Assembly (NCBI RefSeq): GCF_048403405.1
Contig: NZ_CP183129.1
Length of the DNA: 64,000 nucleotides
Reading direction: 5' to 3' (one strand)
Origin: Escherichia coli
GTDB lineage: Bacteria; Pseudomonadota; Gammaproteobacteria; Enterobacterales; Enterobacteriaceae
A program made the position numbers and the translations under genes. Below the pieces are notes generated by a model. The model had not been told where the DNA came from, did not search any database, and saw only the letters and a list, made by a program, of their open reading frames with translations. Below are positions 5,978 to 64,000 of the stretch, piece by piece; the first letter of the stretch is position 1; each line of letters begins with the position of its first letter.

Positions 5978-6871
<894 letters not shown>

Positions 6872-6910
6872 TTACCTCATCAATCGCTTGTAGTTATATG
6901 TTGTGTTGTG

Positions 6911-6950
6911 AACATCTATCCATTTAGACGTCCAGATGTAAAGATGAAGG
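6911..6950 (-). promoter_or_regulatory. metF operator: tandem MetJ met boxes (aacatcta / agacgtcc / agatgtaa / agatgaag)
   Basis: Tandem 8-bp repeats close to the AGACGTCT consensus about 40-80 bp upstream of metF start. Confidence 0.7.
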
Positions 6951-7140
6951 AAAAGCCGAGGGGCGTCAACCGAAAAATGACCAATGATGGTGAGGAAAAA
7001 TCAGGGAAGTTGAAAAAAACTCATCTTAATTAGAGGCGATAAAAGATTTCTCTATAGCGCAATCCACCTCGCACGTTTTGACTGATATTCTGACAACACA
7101 GCGACACCTGGGCTTATTCGAAAAACAACGTCCTGCCACC

Positions 7141-7200
7141 GGATGGTGATGCTAAGGCATCTGATTCGGCCTGCGCCCTCGCGTAGGCCGAATACTGGAT
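7141..7200. repeat. REP-like palindromic unit (attcggcct-gcgccctcgcgt-aggccgaat)
   Basis: 9 bp perfect inverted repeat, GC-rich, intergenic. Confidence 0.4.
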
Positions 7201-7249
7201 CTGCAAAATCAACTGGTAACAAACAGATGAATCAACTCAATACGTACTT

Positions 7250-8803
7250 TTACTTGATATCTTTCACGCGCATACCGTTGATCTGTTCATCCGTGATGGT
7301 GTTACCCGCTTTGAAGTAATCAACCACGGCGTGATAAACGTAATAACCGCCCGTTGTGTTACGCGCTTTCCCTTCGGTAAAGGCGGTAAAACCATCTCCA
7401 CCATCAGCAAGGAAACTCTGAGTAGCAATGTGGTAAATCGTCGCATCTTCAATGGGTTTGCCATTCAGAGTCAGCGTGATTACCCGCTGACCAACCGGCT
7501 TACTGCTGTCGTACTTCATTTCCAGGCCTTTCGATACCTGTAAAACGCCATTACTTAAACTTGCGCCGTGTTCCATCAAACTGCGTAATTGTTTACCCGT
7601 GAGATCCATCGTCACCAGTTCGTTGGGAAACGGGAAGGTACTGATGACGCCGCCCATCGTAATCGCCCCTGCGGGGATCTCATTGCGAATGCCGCCAGAG
7701 TTGGTTAACGCCAATTGGGTGTTTTTACCCGCCGCTACCAGTAAAGCATCAGCCGCCAGGTTCCCGAGGGAAGCCGATTCACCATAGGCACGTTTTAATT
7801 CAACCGGCGATTTCGCGACCGTTTGTTGCACCACTTCATCAAGCTTTTTATTCCAGCCGTCGATCACCTGTTTTGTTTGCGGATCGGGCTTCCACTCGTC
7901 GGCGTAAATGGTTTTAAGCTCGAAGTTTTTCACCGTAAAATCATGCGGCTTCTCTTTGTAGTCGAGAACCAGTTTGCCCACATCAATCCCGCCGCTGTCA
8001 GTGGAGAGGATGAGCGTATTGCCGACTTTAATCGGTTCCGGCGTACCCACATGCGCATGTCCGGTGATCAAAATATCCAGCCCTTTCACCTGACTTGCCG
8101 TCTGAATATCTTTATCCAGCGCGCGACGCACATCTGTGCCTCCCATACTGGACTGGCGGGCCGGAACACCTTCATGGATCAGGGCGACGGTCAAATCAAC
8201 CTTGCCTTTAAGTTCATCGATATAACGTTGTAGCCATTTAATTTCATCACGCGCTTCAATCCCCACTCGCGTTGCCGCAGATACCGTGTCATTAAAGGCA
8301 AATACACCGTGCAAACCTATAACGCCTATTTTCACGCCGTCTTTTTCGATGATGGTATATGGCTTATCCCAGAATGATTTACTGCTGTTCTGATAAAAAA
8401 CATTGCCCTGCACAATAGGGAATTTTGCCTGACTCAACTGTAATAATGTGTTGTCCCAGCCGTGGTCAAATTCATGGTTGCCTATCGTGACGGCATCAAA
8501 CGGCATAGTATTCATAATATCGATAATAGCCTTACCTTTGGTCAGGCTGCTGATATATGGCCCGGTAAAATAATCACCCGCATCAAAAAACCATGTCGCT
8601 TTATTTTTTGCTTTTTCTTGCTTAACCAGCGTAGTGATATTTGCCCAGCCGCCAATATCCCGTTTACCATCAGCGATCCACGGCACTTTATAAGGCTCGA
8701 CATGCGCATGGAGGTCGTTGGTATAAATGATGGTGACATCTTTGGCGCAAGCCCAAAACGGCAGTGTTAATGCGATACCCGCAGCAAGTATTTTAATTTT
8801 CAT
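7250..8803 (-). CDS. periplasmic bifunctional metallophosphatase/5'-nucleotidase (UshA/YfkN family)
   Basis: 517 aa; signal peptide [20 protein letters not shown]; calcineurin-like motifs NDLHAH, GDYFTG, GNHEFD, GHAH; C-terminal 5'-nucleotidase-like region; RBS aaggga. Confidence 0.8.
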
Positions 8804-55146: not shown

Positions 55147-58159
<3,013 letters not shown>

Positions 58160-58163
58160 ACAC

Positions 58164-58290
58164 TGCCTGATGCGGCGCAAGCGCCTTATCCGGCCTACGG
58201 GTCGGCAATAGTTGTAGGCCTGATAAGACGCGACAGCGTCGCATCAGGCATTGATTGCCGGATGCGGCACGAGTGCCTTATCCGGCCTAC
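58164..58290. repeat. REP / BIME cluster (three palindromic units) between rhaA and rhaD
   Basis: gcctgatgcggcgcaagcgccttatccggcctac; gtaggcctgataagacgcgacagcgtcgcatcaggca; gccggatgcggcacgagtgccttatccggcctac. Confidence 0.85.
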
Positions 58291-58343
58291 AGATCGTATA
58301 TCCGGCAACAGGCACGGACGTCCAATTAACAGGAACACAGAAC

Positions 58344-59168
58344 ATGCAAAACATTACCCAGTCCTGGTTTGTCCAGGGAATGATCAAAGCCACCACCGAC
58401 GCCTGGCTGAAAGGCTGGGACGAGCGCAATGGTGGTAACCTGACGCTGCGCCTGGATGACGCCGATATCGCGCCTTATCACGGCAACTTTCATGCACAAC
58501 CGCGCTATATCCCGCTCAGCCAGCCCATGCCTTTACTGGCAAATACACCGTTTATTGTCACCGGCTCCGGCAAATTCTTCCGCAACGTCCAGCTTGATCC
58601 TGCGGCTAACTTAGGCGTCGTAAAAGTCGACAGCGACGGCGCGGGCTACCACATTCTCTGGGGGCTAACTCACGAAGCCGTTCCAACCTCTGAACTTCCG
58701 GCGCACTTCCTCTCTCATTGCGAACGCATTAAAGCCACCAACGGTAAAGATCGGGTGATCATGCACTGCCATGCCACCAACCTGATCGCCCTTACCTACG
58801 TACTGGAAAACGACACCGCGGTCTTCACTCGCCAACTGTGGGAAGGCAGCACCGAATGTCTGGTAGTGTTCCCGGATGGCGTCGGCATTTTGCCGTGGAT
58901 GGTGCCCGGCACCGACGAAATCGGCCAGGCGACCGCACAGGAAATGCAAAAACATTCGCTGGTGTTGTGGCCCTTCCACGGCGTCTTCGGCAGCGGTCCG
59001 ACACTGGATGAAACATTCGGTTTAATCGACACCGCAGAAAAATCAGCACAAGTATTAGTGAAGGCTTATTCGATGGGCGGCATGAAACAGACCATCAGCC
59101 GTGAAGAGCTGATAGCGCTCGGCCAGCGTTTCGGCGTTACACCACTCGCCAGTGCGCTGGCGCTGTAA
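58344..59168 (+). CDS. rhaD: rhamnulose-1-phosphate aldolase
   Basis: ORF 58251..59168 trimmed to ATG 58344 ([25 protein letters not shown]); 274 aa. Confidence 0.95.
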
Positions 59169-59177
59169 GGAGCAAAC

Positions 59178-59492
59178 ATGATCCGCAAAGCCTTTGTCAT
59201 GCAGGTTAACCCCGACGCCCACGAAGAGTATCAGCGTCGGCATAATCCAATCTGGCCGGAACTGGAAGCAGTGTTGAAATCTCACGGTGCGCATAACTAC
59301 GCCATTTACCTCGACAAAGCGCGTAATCTGCTATTTGCCACAGTAGAGATTGAATCTGAAGAACGGTGGAATGCGGTAGCCAGTACTGATGTTTGCCAAC
59401 GTTGGTGGAAATATATGACCGACGTTATGCCAGCTAACCCGGATAACAGCCCAGTCAGTAGCGAGCTGCAAGACGTGTTTTACCTGCCTTAA
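59178..59492 (+). CDS. rhaM: L-rhamnose mutarotase
   Basis: 104 aa [30 protein letters not shown]. Confidence 0.95.
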
Positions 59493-59499
59493 TGAGTTG

Positions 59500-59526
59500 C
59501 GGTGCCGGAAAATATCCAGCACCGCG
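59500..59526. terminator. bidirectional hairpin between convergent rhaM and the porin gene
   Basis: gcggtgc-cggaaaatatcca-gcaccgc. Confidence 0.5.
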
Positions 59527-59532
59527 CCTTCA

Positions 59533-60927
59533 TCAGAAGAAGTATTTAAAGCGAACGCGTGCCCCGTAACGGTCATCAGTATCATCACCGTGTTTTTTAT
59601 CACCGTCGCTATCCAGAATGGAGTAATACGTCCCGAGGTAAATATTAAAGTTCTCCATATCCATCACATTAGCGAACTGATAAGACGCATGAATGGTATG
59701 AATGGTGTACGTCCCTTCATCATCAATCCAGCAGTCGTTATCACAAACTACACCGCTGAATTCATCAATCTTATTGTGCGCGTAGATATAACCGAGCTCG
59801 AAACGTTTCCACAGCGCGTTAATCCCGGCAGTGAAATCTTTCTCATTATTAGCATCTAAATAGGCGGTATTAAGATTAACCACGACGCCATTTTCCGGAT
59901 CCGTTTTCAGGCCATTCCAGGTCATGCTCATACCATAGCCGGTACGATCGGACTGATCGACAAAATTACCCTTGCTATCGGTATAACCATAAGCATTATT
60001 TACCACGTTCGCTTCCATCGCTGCGGAAACGGTGAATTCTTCTGTCGGCGACCAGGCAATTACCGGACGCAGATAAGCAACATTTTTCTGCTGCTCCATA
60101 TCGCGTCCATGATAATTACCGTCATTATATAAAGATGTTCCGTCTTCAAGTAACGTGTTTAATTCAAAATACCAGTTATCGAGTTGTTTGCTGACGAGGA
60201 AATTACCGCCAGCGTTAGAGCGCCCGCGGCCCTCTTTCATCATATAGATATAACCGCTGCCATCGTCATAAAGATCGTTCGCAGTATTACCGGAATGTTC
60301 AACAAAGGTATCCTGATTCAGCGGGAACATATCATAGGCTTCGAAACGACCGACTTTGACCTTCCAGTCATTCTCTTTCCCAAAGAAGAATACCGCGTCA
60401 TCAATATTCACTGAACCGTGCATATCCCCCAGCGGTTGTGCGGAGAACCCGGCGAAATAACCATTATCCAGTTTTCGCATACCATCAAAACCTAACAGAA
60501 TACGACCATTGAGATTCCACTGTTCATTAGTGGGATCGCTATTCACATCAGCGTTGGTCATTGCCAGCAGGCCATGATTACTTTCTGCATCCATATTAAA
60601 TTCTACGTCGCCGTAGATTTTTAAATCGCCATAACCTGAGAGCAAAAGATTAGGTGAGGTGGAATTTTTCTTTGCAGATTCCGCCGTTGCCTGTCCATTT
60701 ACCGGCGTATTGCCCTGGGCAGCCTTAATTTCGCGGATCTCAGCGGCTTGTTGTGTCTGCAGCTGTTTAACCTGGCTCTCTGCTTTTGCTGCCCGCATTT
60801 CTGCCGCTTCCAGGCGTTCTTCCAGCAATGCCATGCGTTGTTCCAGCGTTAAATGCTGTGTTTTTGCCATTCCGGTACTACATGCCAATAATAAACCGAT
60901 GGCTAAAGATAATGTCGATTTTTTCAT
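59533..60927 (-). CDS. outer-membrane beta-barrel porin, probably carbohydrate-selective (LamB/ScrY/OprB-like), with N-terminal coiled-coil extension
   Basis: 464 aa; signal peptide MKKSTLSLAIGLLLACSTGMA; coiled-coil LEQRMALLEERLEAAEMRAAKAESQVKQLQ; C-terminal ...RVRFKYFF (terminal Phe OMP signature); family call is by resemblance only. Confidence 0.65.
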   Translation of the reverse strand: MKKSTLSLAIGLLLACSTGMAKTQHLTLEQRMALLEERLEAAEMRAAKAESQVKQLQTQQAAEIREIKAAQGNTPVNGQATAESAKKNSTSPNLLLSGYGDLKIYGDVEFNMDAESNHGLLAMTNADVNSDPTNEQWNLNGRILLGFDGMRKLDNGYFAGFSAQPLGDMHGSVNIDDAVFFFGKENDWKVKVGRFEAYDMFPLNQDTFVEHSGNTANDLYDDGSGYIYMMKEGRGRSNAGGNFLVSKQLDNWYFELNTLLEDGTSLYNDGNYHGRDMEQQKNVAYLRPVIAWSPTEEFTVSAAMEANVVNNAYGYTDSKGNFVDQSDRTGYGMSMTWNGLKTDPENGVVVNLNTAYLDANNEKDFTAGINALWKRFELGYIYAHNKIDEFSGVVCDNDCWIDDEGTYTIHTIHASYQFANVMDMENFNIYLGTYYSILDSDGDKKHGDDTDDRYGARVRFKYFF

Positions 60928-61403
60928 TATTTACGTTCCCTGAAATAAAAGAGACCCTACGCTTTCCAAAAGGAATACGTATATAGAGAAATATAAGGTG
61001 TGCACTTTCGAATTTTTAATCCAACTTCAGCAGGCCGATGGATAGTATCCCGCTGCATAATATGAGTAAATCCGCTGATTTCCTGGAACGTGAGGAATAT
61101 AACAATAGTGCCGTTTTTAACCAAATATCGTAAAAAATATTAGATATAATTCACGCTGACTCATAAGCCACAAATATAAATAACCTTGCTGCAAAACATG
61201 TGCGGCAGTTAAACATTCACAACATCATTAAATAATGATTTTTTATTCACTGCATTTATTTTTCCCATCAATATGTGCCTTACACCGCAAAATTTATCCT
61301 TCACTCTGCCTTATATTGTCACGACTTCACGACATATCCGCGCTCATCACAAAACCGCCCCGCCGTTACAATTAACTATAATATTTTTTCATGGAGTCCA
61401 ATA

Positions 61404-61850
61404 ATGGCAGCACTTACTGCAAGCTGTATTGACCTGAATATTCAGGGCAATGGCGCTTATTCCGTTCTGAAGCAGTTGGCGACAATGGCGTTACAAAACG
61501 GTTTTATCACCGACTCACACCAGTTCCTGCAAACCCTGCTGCTGCGCGAAAAAATGCACTCCACCGGTTTTGGTTCCGGCATCGCCGTGCCGCACGGTAA
61601 AAGCGCCTGCGTTAAACAACCGTTCGTGTTATTCGCCCGCAAAGCGCAGGCCATTGACTGGAAAGCCAGCGACGGCGAAGACGTCAATTGCTGGATCTGC
61701 CTCGGCGTGCCGCAAAGTGGCGAAGAGGATCAGGTCAAAATCATCGGCACACTGTGTCGCAAAATTATCCACCAGGATTTTATCAACCAACTGCGACAGG
61801 GCGACGCCGACCAGGTGCTTGCTTTGTTAAATCAAACCCTCAGCTCATAA
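61404..61850 (+). CDS. frvA: PTS fructose-like EIIA component
   Basis: ORF 61275..61850 trimmed to ATG 61404 (MAALTASCIDLNIQGNGAYSVLKQLA) with GGAG RBS; 148 aa. Confidence 0.85.
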   Translation: MAALTASCIDLNIQGNGAYSVLKQLATMALQNGFITDSHQFLQTLLLREKMHSTGFGSGIAVPHGKSACVKQPFVLFARKAQAIDWKASDGEDVNCWICLGVPQSGEEDQVKIIGTLCRKIIHQDFINQLRQGDADQVLALLNQTLSS

Positions 61851-61860
61851 GGAAGTGGCG

Positions 61861-63312
61861 ATGGAGTCATCCTTACGTATTGTCGCGATCACCAACTGCC
61901 CCGCCGGGATCGCTCACACCTACATGGTGGCGGAAGCCCTGGAACAGAAAGCCCGTTCTCTCGGTCATACCATTAAAGTTGAAACTCAAGGATCAAGCGG
62001 CGTCGAAAACCGCTTATCCAGCGAAGAGATTGCCGCTGCCGATTACGTGATTTTCGCCACCGGGCGTGGCCTGAGCGGTGACGATCGCGCGCGATTTGCC
62101 GGGAAAATGGTTTATGAGATTGCCATCTCCCAGGCGCTGAAAAATATCGACCAGATTTTCAGTGAATTACCGACAAACTCACAACTTTTTGCCGCAGATA
62201 GCGGCGTGAAGCTCGGCAAACAGGAAGTGCAAAGTGGCAGCGTAATGAGCCATCTGATGGCGGGTGTCTCTGCGGCGCTGCCGTTTGTCATCGGTGGCGG
62301 TATCCTGGTGGCGCTTGCCAACATGCTGGTGCAGTTCGGTTTGCCGTATACCGATATGTCGAAAGGCGCGCCGTCGTTTACCTGGGTGGTTGAATCCATC
62401 GGTTATCTCGGCTTCACCTTTATGATCCCCATCATGGGCGCTTATATTGCCTCGTCGATTGCCGATAAACCCGCTTTCGCTCCGGCGTTTCTGGTTTGCT
62501 ATCTGGCGAATGACAAAGCCCTGCTCGGCACCCAGTCTGGCGCGGGCTTCCTCGGCGCGGTGGTGCTGGGGCTGGCGATTGGCTATTTCGTCTTCTGGTT
62601 CCGTAAAGTGCGCCTTGGCAAAGCATTACAACCGCTGCTCGGTTCCATGCTGATCCCGTTCGTCACTCTGCTGGTTTTCGGCGTACTGACTTACTACGTT
62701 ATCGGACCGGTGATGTCCGACCTCATGGGCGGGTTGCTGCACTTCCTGAACACCATTCCTCCGTCAATGAAGTTTGCGGCAGCGTTTTTGGTCGGTGCGA
62801 TGCTGGCGTTCGATATGGGCGGCCCTATCAATAAAACCGCCTGGTTCTTCTGCTTCTCACTGCTGGAAAAACACATTTACGACTGGTACGCCATCGTCGG
62901 CGTTGTCGCGCTGATGCCGCCTGTCGCGGCGGGTCTTGCGACGTTCATTGCGCCCAAACTGTTTACCCGACAGGAAAAAGAGGCTGCCAGTAGTGCCATT
63001 GTGGTCGGTGCCACAGTCGCAACCGAACCGGCTATTCCTTACGCTCTGGCAGCTCCGTTGCCGATGATTACCGCCAATACGCTGGCGGGCGGTATTACCG
63101 GCGTGCTGGTGATCGCTTTCGGAATCAAACGTCTGGCGCCAGGTTTGGGTATCTTTGACCCGCTGATCGGCCTGATGTCGCCGGTGGGTTCGTTTTATCT
63201 GGTGCTGGCGATTGGCCTCGCGCTGAACATTTCATTCATTATCGTCCTGAAAGGATTATGGTTACGCCGCAAAGCGAAAGCCGCGCAACAGGAGCTTGTC
63301 CATGAACATTGA
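61861..63312 (+). CDS. frvB: PTS fructose-like EIIBC component
   Basis: ATG 61861 (MESSLRIVAITNCPAGIAHTYMVAEALE); 483 aa; EIIB Cys motif NCPAGIAHT; polytopic EIIC. Confidence 0.85.
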   Translation: MESSLRIVAITNCPAGIAHTYMVAEALEQKARSLGHTIKVETQGSSGVENRLSSEEIAAADYVIFATGRGLSGDDRARFAGKMVYEIAISQALKNIDQIFSELPTNSQLFAADSGVKLGKQEVQSGSVMSHLMAGVSAALPFVIGGGILVALANMLVQFGLPYTDMSKGAPSFTWVVESIGYLGFTFMIPIMGAYIASSIADKPAFAPAFLVCYLANDKALLGTQSGAGFLGAVVLGLAIGYFVFWFRKVRLGKALQPLLGSMLIPFVTLLVFGVLTYYVIGPVMSDLMGGLLHFLNTIPPSMKFAAAFLVGAMLAFDMGGPINKTAWFFCFSLLEKHIYDWYAIVGVVALMPPVAAGLATFIAPKLFTRQEKEAASSAIVVGATVATEPAIPYALAAPLPMITANTLAGGITGVLVIAFGIKRLAPGLGIFDPLIGLMSPVGSFYLVLAIGLALNISFIIVLKGLWLRRKAKAAQQELVHEH

Positions 63313-64000
63313 GTTACTGCAACAGTTGTGCGAAGCCAGCGCCGTCAGCGGCGATGAACAGGAAGTTCGCGACATCCTGATAAACACGCTGGAACCTTGC
63401 GTTAATGAAATCACCTTTGATGGTCTGGGTAGCTTTGTTGCCCGTAAGGGGAATAAAGGTCCAAAAGTTGCCGTTGTCGGGCATATGGATGAAGTCGGCT
63501 TTATGGTCACCCACATCGACGAGAGCGGTTTTTTGCGTTTCACCACCATTGGTGGCTGGTGGAATCAGTCGATGCTCAACCACCGGGTAACCATACGCAC
63601 ACACAAGGGAGTGAAAATCCCTGGTGTGATTGGTTCCGTCGCGCCTCATGCGTTAACCGAAAAGCAAAAGCAACAGCCGCTTTCATTTGATGAGATGTTC
63701 ATTGATATTGGCGCGTACAGTCGCGAAGAGGTGGAAAAACGCGGCGTGGAAATTGGCAATTTTATTAGCCCGGAAGCCAATTTTGCCTGCTGGGGCGAAG
63801 ATAAAGTGGTCGGCAAGGCTCTGGATAATCGCATCGGCTGCGCGATGATGGCTGAGCTACTACAGACAGTAAATAACCCCGAAATTACGCTGTACGGCGT
63901 CGGCAGCGTGGAAGAAGAAGTTGGGCTACGCGGGGCACAAACCTCGGCTGAACACACTAAACCGGATGTGGTGATCGTGCTGGATACCGCTGTCGCAGGT
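63302..64000 (+). CDS. frvX: M42-family aminopeptidase/cellulase-like FrvX, 5' portion (3' end outside the window)
   Basis: ATG 63302; MNIELLQQLCEASAVSGDEQEVRDILINTLEP...; open to the window end; overlaps frvB stop. Confidence 0.8.
   Translation, partial: MNIELLQQLCEASAVSGDEQEVRDILINTLEPCVNEITFDGLGSFVARKGNKGPKVAVVGHMDEVGFMVTHIDESGFLRFTTIGGWWNQSMLNHRVTIRTHKGVKIPGVIGSVAPHALTEKQKQQPLSFDEMFIDIGAYSREEVEKRGVEIGNFISPEANFACWGEDKVVGKALDNRIGCAMMAELLQTVNNPEITLYGVGSVEEEVGLRGAQTSAEHTKPDVVIVLDTAVAG

Follow-up and report, generated by a model that had tools for sequence, protein, structure and literature searches.

Does the frv operon of Escherichia coli, which encodes a phosphotransferase system (PTS), share an uptake route with the porin gene that stands beside it in some strains, or are the two independent neighbours? 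We examined this question in a stretch of 64,000 nucleotides of E. coli contig NZ_CP183129.1 (assembly GCF_048403405.1; hereafter the window), which ends within frvX and in which frvA adjoins a gene for a RafY-family carbohydrate porin. A preliminary description of this DNA had read the adjacency as a possible hint of coupled uptake. Our analysis makes it likely that frvABXR is a cassette with its own control region, and that the porin forms a unit apart, for which we predict a class-I CRP promoter of its own. The operon itself is already known, and is said to have been described from genome sequence by Reizer, Michotey, Reizer and Saier in Protein Science in 1994; what is new is the footprint of the frv control region and a three-state structural polymorphism of the locus, both of them modest.

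The frvABXR operon and its preservation

The frv genes of the window are the following.

61404-61850, plus strand: frvA, 148 amino acids; ATG at 61404, stop codon at 61848-61850; NF007389 equivalog, PF00359
61861-63312, plus strand: frvB, 483 amino acids; ATG at 61861, stop codon at 63310-63312; NF008493 equivalog, PF02302 and PF02378
63302-64000 (window end), plus strand: frvX, the first 232 of 356 codons; ATG at 63302; NF007367, PF05343

Positions 59100-64000 are 100% identical to the chromosome of E. coli strain TUM14771, for which RefSeq gives the order rhaBADM, a 'carbohydrate porin' on the opposite strand, frvA, frvB, frvX, frvR, a yiiG pseudogene and fdhD. The fourth frv gene, frvR, lies beyond the window end and is intact in this identical genome, where frvA-frvB-frvX-frvR follow one another on a single strand between rhaM and yiiG; the layout in K-12 is the same. 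The list of open reading frames extends frvB to a GTG at 61855, and the start in RefSeq and in K-12 is 61861. The reading frames of frvB and frvX overlap by 11 nt. A Shine-Dalgarno sequence lies 7 nt before each start codon (GGAG at 61393 for frvA, AGGA at 61850 for frvB and AGGAG at 63290 for frvX), which bears out the earlier statement that the ribosome-binding sites are good.

FrvA and FrvB match their NCBIfam equivalog models end to end (NF007389 at 289 bits, cut-off 151; NF008493 at 1029 bits, cut-off 806). The part of FrvX inside the window scores 540 bits against NF007367 (cut-off 569) and the full-length protein of the identical strain 833 bits; full-length FrvR of the same genome reaches 1038 bits against an equivalog cut-off of 426. 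FrvA is a PTS enzyme IIA of the fructose/mannitol type (PF00359, PTS_EIIA_2, 121.5 bits), and its phospho-accepting residue, His64 in GIAVPHG, aligns with GVAIPHG of PtsN structures. FrvB is an enzyme IIBC of the fructose family, with the Pfam domains PTS_IIB (PF02302) and PTS_EIIC (PF02378). Cys13 of its IIB domain lies in NCPAGIAHTY, which aligns with the phospho-cysteine motif ACPVGVAHTY of the fructose IIB structure 5DLE, and the IIC membrane domain covers approximately residues 134-406. FrvX is a homolog of the M42-family (TET-like) metallo-aminopeptidases (PF05343, 338 bits for the full-length protein), and the nearest solved structures are the TET-type M42 aminopeptidases 1VHE, 5DS0 and 1Y0R. 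The part of FrvX inside the window includes GHMDEVG, LDNR, EEEVG and LDTAV, which we take to be metal ligand motifs of the M42 family.

All four proteins have the same length as in K-12, with amino-acid identities of 95.3% for FrvA, 99.6% for FrvB, 97.5% for FrvX and 97.4% for FrvR. The ratio of nonsynonymous to synonymous substitution rates (dN/dS) relative to K-12 is 0.13 for frvA, 0.015 for frvB, 0.056 for frvX and 0.086 for frvR, and that of the neighbouring genes rhaM and rhaD is 0.036 and 0.049, respectively. Relative to Citrobacter braakii, the frv genes give values of 0.04-0.13. We conclude that the window carries an intact copy of a long-known E. coli PTS operon that is under purifying selection, and the earlier claim that frvA, frvB and the start of frvX are intact is borne out by their coordinates, equivalog matches, K-12 lengths and dN/dS values.

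An alternative is that frv is a decaying, non-functional relic that has been kept by chance. Consistent with this, a search of the literature for frvA, frvB, frvX, frvR, the frv operon and fructose-like PTS returned no substrate or phenotype, only listings: a 2023 review has frvA and frvB as 'putative, fructose-like' components, FrvR appears in lists of transcription factors only, and a paper on M42 peptidases uses 'proteins of the Frv operon' as a database label only, and has YpdE as the sole characterised protein among three E. coli M42 proteins (PMC3511314). Other uses of the same letters, such as frvA of Listeria, are unrelated. In addition, the operon has been cleanly deleted in ~22% of complete E. 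coli genomes, including B2/ST131 strains and Nissle, IS1-mediated deletions remove it from a few more, and a consensus sigma-70 promoter is not found at frvA. Against decay stand the full length of all four genes in the identical genome, dN/dS values comparable to those of the rha genes, intact catalytic motifs, FrvB sequences that are 87-93% identical across genera, a control region conserved in nine genera, and the presence of frvAB in 4,191 of 5,426 complete E. coli genomes (scored by BLAST at a coverage of at least 80%, for frvAB as for the porin). We regard a relic as extremely unlikely, and, to judge from these substitution rates and this conservation, frvABXR is a maintained unit rather than a decaying one. 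The term 'cryptic' in the preliminary description is apt as to substrate and inducer, and the statement that the substrate is not established still holds; as to decay, the term does not fit. Note that Shigella dysenteriae and S. boydii have FrvX homologs of 299-302 rather than 356 amino acids (P0083, P0086 and P0095), suggesting that frvX is truncated in those lineages.

A conserved control region upstream of frvA

The 260 bp that precede frvA were aligned for 14 sequences, and the resulting motifs were looked for in the 200 bp before the gene in these and in Hafnia and Buttiauxella, giving 16 sequences from nine genera. A CRP-like site, an inverted repeat and a -10-like element are the only conserved elements upstream of frvA; the remainder could not be aligned. 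Their positions in the window are the following.

61274-61289, plus strand: predicted CRP-like site TGTGCCTTACACCGCA, pattern TGTG-N8-CRCA, in 16 of 16 frvA upstream regions
61317-61334, plus strand: inverted repeat TGTCA-N8-CGACA, predicted operator for FrvR, arms conserved in the 16 sequences
61367-61372, plus strand: -10-like hexamer TACAAT of the predicted frv promoter, position conserved as TA[ACT][ACT][ACT]T

The distance from the CRP-like site to the inverted repeat is 42 nt in 12 of the 16 sequences, 41 nt in two, and 32 nt, one helical turn shorter, in a further two. At loci L025 and L031, 10 bp have been deleted between the CRP-like site and the repeat; this corresponds to one helical turn and leaves both elements on one side of the helix. 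In every one of the 16 sequences, the -10 element follows the repeat at a distance of 50-51 nt, also in that of a Hafnia cassette at an unrelated locus. Its arms are invariant or nearly so and its inner bases are free to vary; the right arm reads TGACA in most genera, giving the general form TGTCA-N8(9)-YGACA. In the 64-kb window, the frv repeat has one exact match, and allowing one mismatch adds none. From the -10-like element to the start codon, the distance is 33-37 nt in 15 of the 16 sequences; in Hafnia, it is ~57 nt. The promoter has no good -35 element: the corresponding region reads CTCATC, with a conserved GCTCA at 61342-61346. A scan for consensus sigma-70 promoters and terminators likewise gave no full promoter for frvA, with fewer promoter-like sites than in shuffled sequence, and we propose that no consensus promoter is found because the promoter is activator-dependent.

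Homology to K-12 resumes at position 61269, five bases before the CRP-like site, indicating that the 135 bp from 61269 to 61403 belong to frv. As judged from these conserved elements and breakpoints, frvABXR and the 135-bp control region are a self-contained cassette, and the control architecture travels with the cassette to the unrelated Hafnia locus. This region provides a testable handle on the operon, and may be of use in work on orphan PTS.

FrvR is the candidate activator. It has an HTH_11 domain at residues 5-60, a second, weak helix-turn-helix at residues 79-116, a weak N-terminal match to the Mga-like AcpB/EbpR/MafR proteins, and a C-terminal EIIA(2) domain (PF00359) at residues 455-560, with a conserved histidine in AIPH; the stretch in between, approximately residues 120-450, has no domain assignment, and a sequence search of the PDB with FrvR gave no match. 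MtlR/LicR/Mga-type proteins are PTS-controlled activators of Gram-positive bacteria. FrvR resembles them in its N-terminal helix-turn-helix, in its histidine-bearing C-terminal EIIA(2) domain and in the location of its predicted operator just upstream of the -35 region, and would presumably be controlled by phosphorylation as well. If transcription starts near 61379, the CRP-like site lies ~98 nt and the centre of the repeat ~54 nt upstream of the start. We predict that FrvR binds the repeat at 61317-61334 and, jointly with CRP bound at 61274-61289, activates a promoter that has a -10 element and no usable -35 element. Such joint activation would keep the operon silent until an inducer is present and glucose is absent, and would account for its apparent silence in laboratory culture. 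In this scheme, the binding of both proteins, the transcription start, activation over repression and the role of FrvX are all inferred.

The porin and frv as neighbours

The features to the left of the frv control region are listed here.

59178-59492, plus strand: rhaM, L-rhamnose mutarotase (TIGR02625 at 191 bits, Pfam rhaM, RefSeq annotation of the identical genome)
59494-61268, no strand: porin module, i.e. gene and control region, delimited by BLAST breakpoints relative to K-12 at 59493 and 61269
59533-60927, minus strand: gene for a RafY-family carbohydrate porin of 464 amino acids (Pfam Porin_8)
61042-61104, minus strand: predicted porin promoter, a block conserved among porin orthologs
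61104 to 61089, minus strand: predicted CRP-like site of the porin gene, TGTTATATTCCTCACG, conserved across genera
61070 to 61065, minus strand: porin -35 element TTTACT, 17 nt from the -10 element
61047 to 61042, minus strand: porin -10 element TACTAT, within the conserved block

The porin matches Pfam Porin_8 (RafY) at 513.9 bits (cut-off 25) over residues 104-464, and carries the signal peptide MKKSTLSLAIGLLLACSTGMA as well as a coiled-coil-like stretch in its N-terminal part; its last residues, RFKYFF, form an aromatic outer-membrane signal. It is 77.6% identical in amino acids to plasmid-encoded RafY, and a PDB sequence search gave no match to it. In O157:H7, it is named 'rafY2' (PMC4809568). 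Its left neighbour rhaM, the last gene of rhaBADM, is convergent with it. On the right, the porin gene and frvA are divergent and separated by a 476-bp spacer. The preliminary description was correct in placing frv directly beside the porin gene; frv is not downstream of it, as the porin is encoded on the minus strand and frvA points away from it.

This divergent arrangement could be taken as a sign of one uptake route made up of the porin, which would let the frv substrate through the outer membrane, and the frv PTS, both co-regulated from the common spacer, and CRP-like sites are indeed found in both predicted promoters. The structure of the spacer argues against common control. If porin transcription starts near 61035, as the positions of the promoter elements suggest, the CRP-like site would be centred at approximately -61.5, in class I geometry. 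Irrespective of an adjacent frv, the porin promoter block is kept in ~18 of 22 orthologs, which come from several genera, and the frv inverted repeat was not found in the porin promoter or elsewhere in the porin module. GC content is 44.9% in the porin gene, 35.9% in the spacer and 52-55% in the frv genes, with 51.5% for the window. The lower GC content of the porin gene fits a separate origin of the porin module, and the AT-rich spacer suggests a possible H-NS target.

K-12 has the same four frv genes (b3900-b3897) as the window, in the same order, of the same lengths, with the same 135-bp control region and at the same position between rhaM and yiiG. It differs from the window in that the porin is missing, with 164 unrelated bases in place of the 1.8-kb module at 59494-61268, and in that yiiG, which lies 3' of frvR, is intact. 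In the window strain (L001, 13077-13719) and in a B2-type strain (L002, 10182-10872), yiiG is a frameshifted pseudogene that lacks its N-terminus. B2-type strains, including ST131 and Nissle, show the reverse loss: frvABXR is cleanly gone from 18 bp before the frvA ATG (61387) onwards, and the porin and the whole spacer are kept. The two promoter modules are therefore parted by the K-12 breakpoint, and the B2 deletion sets in shortly before the frvA ATG; both speak against a single uptake unit.

The preliminary description had named co-occurrence of the porin and frvABXR as a check of the proposed coupling. Among the 5,426 E. coli genomes, the porin is present in 2,557, and porin and frv, tallied separately for contiguity, are contiguous in 1,376. 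By subtraction, ~1,181 genomes have only the porin, ~2,815 only frv and ~54 neither. Porin and frv are thus inversely associated (odds ratio ~0.02 when kinship among genomes is ignored), which goes against the coupling by the refuting standard of the preliminary description itself. The number of genomes without both, ~54 rather than the ~650 expected under independent loss, would favour coupling. This deficit is most likely a phylogenetic artefact of few deletion events: in the inspected genomes without both, single IS1-mediated deletions run from rhaM or the porin through to fdhD. We also considered functional redundancy as the cause of the deficit and dropped it, since the inspected examples are such deletions and the pattern fits few lineage-specific events. 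At two of these loci, IS1 lies at the exact point of truncation of rhaM or of the 3' end of the porin gene (L087, 7079-7942; L088, 4001-4819), and the porin, frvABXR and yiiG are gone up to fdhD.

A scan of one genome per species gave 80 loci with porin relatives, 34 of which hold orthologs at 66-99% identity. frvABXR lies near the porin ortholog in 12 of the 34 loci, or in 13 with the inclusion of a distant frvA at the edge of one locus, and at least 17 lack frv despite flanking sequence sufficient to show it. The porin is directly divergent from frvA in five loci (one Escherichia sp., two Enterobacter and two Trabulsiella), an arrangement that would be expected of a coupled pair. By contrast, azlCD and an XRE/cupin regulator gene have been inserted between porin and frv in seven loci. 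Moreover, Hafnia alvei has the same four-gene frvABXR block between unrelated genes, and Buttiauxella has frvABXR adjoining fdhD, in both cases without the porin. The insertions, which are found in Citrobacter, Kluyvera and relatives, consist of an azlC-like gene, a small open reading frame and the XRE/cupin regulator (L010, L017, L022, L025, L028, L031 and L034, at ~6000-7700), and the insertion site is immediately upstream of the frv CRP-like site.

The partners of RafY-family porins elsewhere are of a different kind. PMC4809568 credits the identification of RafY to Ulmke, Lengeler and Schmid (1997). Plasmid rafY, which belongs to the same Pfam family as the window porin, is the last gene of a same-strand operon, rafR-A-B-D-Y, for a repressor, an alpha-galactosidase, a symporter, an invertase and the porin; the window porin, unlike plasmid rafY, stands alone between rhaM and frvA. 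More generally, in porin-coupled operons of the raf, scr, bgl and mal type, the porin shares a regulated unit with the transporter, whereas the window porin and frv do not. At the rhaM locus of Klebsiella and Raoultella, the ortholog ends a same-strand cluster in which a glycoside hydrolase family 36 (GH36) alpha-galactosidase is joined by a LacY-type symporter and an acetyltransferase; two Enterobacter genomes have a LacI-type regulator, GH36 and a LacY-type symporter after the ortholog; and in Klebsiella michiganensis, it comes after GH32 and a beta-helix protein resembling inulin fructotransferase. Remoter paralogs stand with a trehalase-like hydrolase and an MFS_2 symporter, or with LacI, a LacY-type symporter and GH32. 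In a 2026 preprint, a LacI-type repressor is shown to regulate a Klebsiella RafY-family porin along with a permease and a hydrolase. This survey indicates that the usual partner of the RafY family is a same-strand symporter of the major facilitator superfamily with a glycosidase, in operons of the raffinose or fructan type, and not a PTS. A fragment of an iron-dependent alcohol dehydrogenase gene near plasmid rafY had suggested that the plasmid raf operon might derive from a rhaM-adjacent locus; as the fragment is only 42-47% identical to the dehydrogenase adjoining rhaM, we dropped the idea.

Alternatively, the porin could be a functional part of the rhamnose locus, rather than of frv or of raffinose-type systems, and serve for instance the uptake of rhamnose-containing oligosaccharides. 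rhaM lies near the porin ortholog, convergent with it, in 29 of the 34 loci, from at least eight genera, a far steadier link than that to frv. The convergent orientation means, however, that the porin is not co-transcribed with rhaM, and it has its own promoter; K-12 keeps the whole rha system without the porin; and unrelated sugar cassettes surround the porin at the rhaM site, including raf, GH32 with a beta-helix protein, and GH4 with a PTS IIC. Given these varied cassettes, the adjacency to rhaM looks like inherited synteny at a variable spot, and a rhamnose role for the porin is highly improbable. For the E. coli chromosomal porin, the best reading is that of an orphan general glycoporin. 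Between rhaM and fdhD lies a variable site, at which several sugar cassettes, the RafY-type porin and frvABXR are gained and lost independently. Other occupants among the genera are GntR with a PTS IIC and GH4, GH32 with the inulin fructotransferase-like beta-helix protein, LacI with an MFS_2 symporter and a beta-helix protein, and a type I restriction-modification system (L008, 1695-5121; L018, 4662-7843; L020, 9686-13615; L034, 10177-17177).

Several observations weigh against our interpretation of frv as a cassette under its own FrvR- and CRP-dependent promoter, with the porin apart. The repeat motif by itself is not statistically rare, ~1.9 one-mismatch matches being expected by chance in 64 kb, so that the case rests on its conserved position. 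In E. coli, the right arm of the repeat is CGACA instead of TGACA and the CRP-like site has a weak right half (CCGCA). The transcription starts, near 61379 for frv and near 61035 for the porin, are placed from hexamer positions only. Unlike regulators of the MtlR/LicR type, FrvR has neither a PRD nor an EIIB(Gat) domain that Pfam detects (no PRD family at E <= 0.01), which leaves that analogy incomplete. The co-occurrence counts come from subtraction of three BLAST tallies with kinship ignored, and few lineage-specific deletions could yield them. Lastly, porin and frvA are divergent neighbours in Escherichia, Enterobacter and Trabulsiella, both apparently CRP-dependent, and some co-expression under catabolite derepression is likely.

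Taking these points into account, we consider it very unlikely that the porin and the frv PTS constitute one uptake route. Their opposite strands, separately conserved promoters, the breakpoints between the modules, the inverse association in E. coli and the porin-less cassettes of Hafnia and Buttiauxella do not support the proposed coupling. The adjacency is real, and is in all probability a lineage-specific juxtaposition of two independent modules at the variable rhaM-fdhD site. The preliminary finding as stated matters little, since the operon is textbook-annotated and the porin link is not upheld.

Candidate function of the frv system and further observations

FrvA and FrvB share their IIA(2), IIB and IIC families and phospho-site motifs with the fructose system FruBKA and with MngA, the transporter of 2-O-alpha-mannosyl-D-glycerate. 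FrvB scores 269 bits against the FruA model (cut-off 793) and 258 bits against the MngA model (cut-off 763), far below either cut-off, indicating that it is neither protein. Unlike these systems, frv has no linked FruK kinase or MngB glycosidase, and instead includes a homolog of M42 peptidases and a regulator with an EIIA domain. An M42 gene is also present in two cryptic PTS clusters of E. coli, sgc (sgcX) and fry/ypd (ypdE), which resemble frv as PTS without an assigned substrate that are linked to an M42 homolog; they differ from frv in their PTS families and regulators. FrvX scores 281 bits against NF007421, a second E. coli M42 model.

By analogy with its families, the frv system would pass phosphate from phosphoenolpyruvate through enzyme I and HPr to His64 of FrvA, then to Cys13 of FrvB and finally to the sugar, with the IIC domain of FrvB taking up and phosphorylating a sugar or sugar conjugate. 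Because the cassette encodes no kinase, isomerase or glycosidase, FrvX, as a TET-like M42 metallohydrolase, is the only candidate processing enzyme, and it probably acts on the substrate or its product. A more specific proposal, which we put forward as speculative and rather unlikely to be correct as it stands, is that the substrate is a conjugate of a sugar with an amino acid or peptide, such as a glycated compound or a glycopeptide fragment, which FrvB would import and phosphorylate and FrvX would cleave, with FrvR acting at TGTCA-N8-TGACA as an inducer-responsive activator. The predicted operator and the activator gene offer a direct route to turning frv on and screening substrates.

Two further observations concern sequence records and flanking DNA. 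CACSKA010000012.1 (L025), deposited as 'Chryseobacterium sp. 18061', has the enterobacterial order fdhD-frvRXBA-azlCD-porin and encodes a FrvB 87% identical to that of E. coli; the record is probably mislabelled or contaminated. An Rfam scan of positions 58000-64000 (E <= 1) gave no match in the porin-frv region, and matches to naRNA4 (RF02564) between rhaA and rhaD only. The latter are due to repetitive extragenic palindromic (REP)-type repeats at 58107-58287, where the minus-strand copy at 58217-58287 reaches 74 bits and so exceeds the gathering score, with weaker copies beside it.

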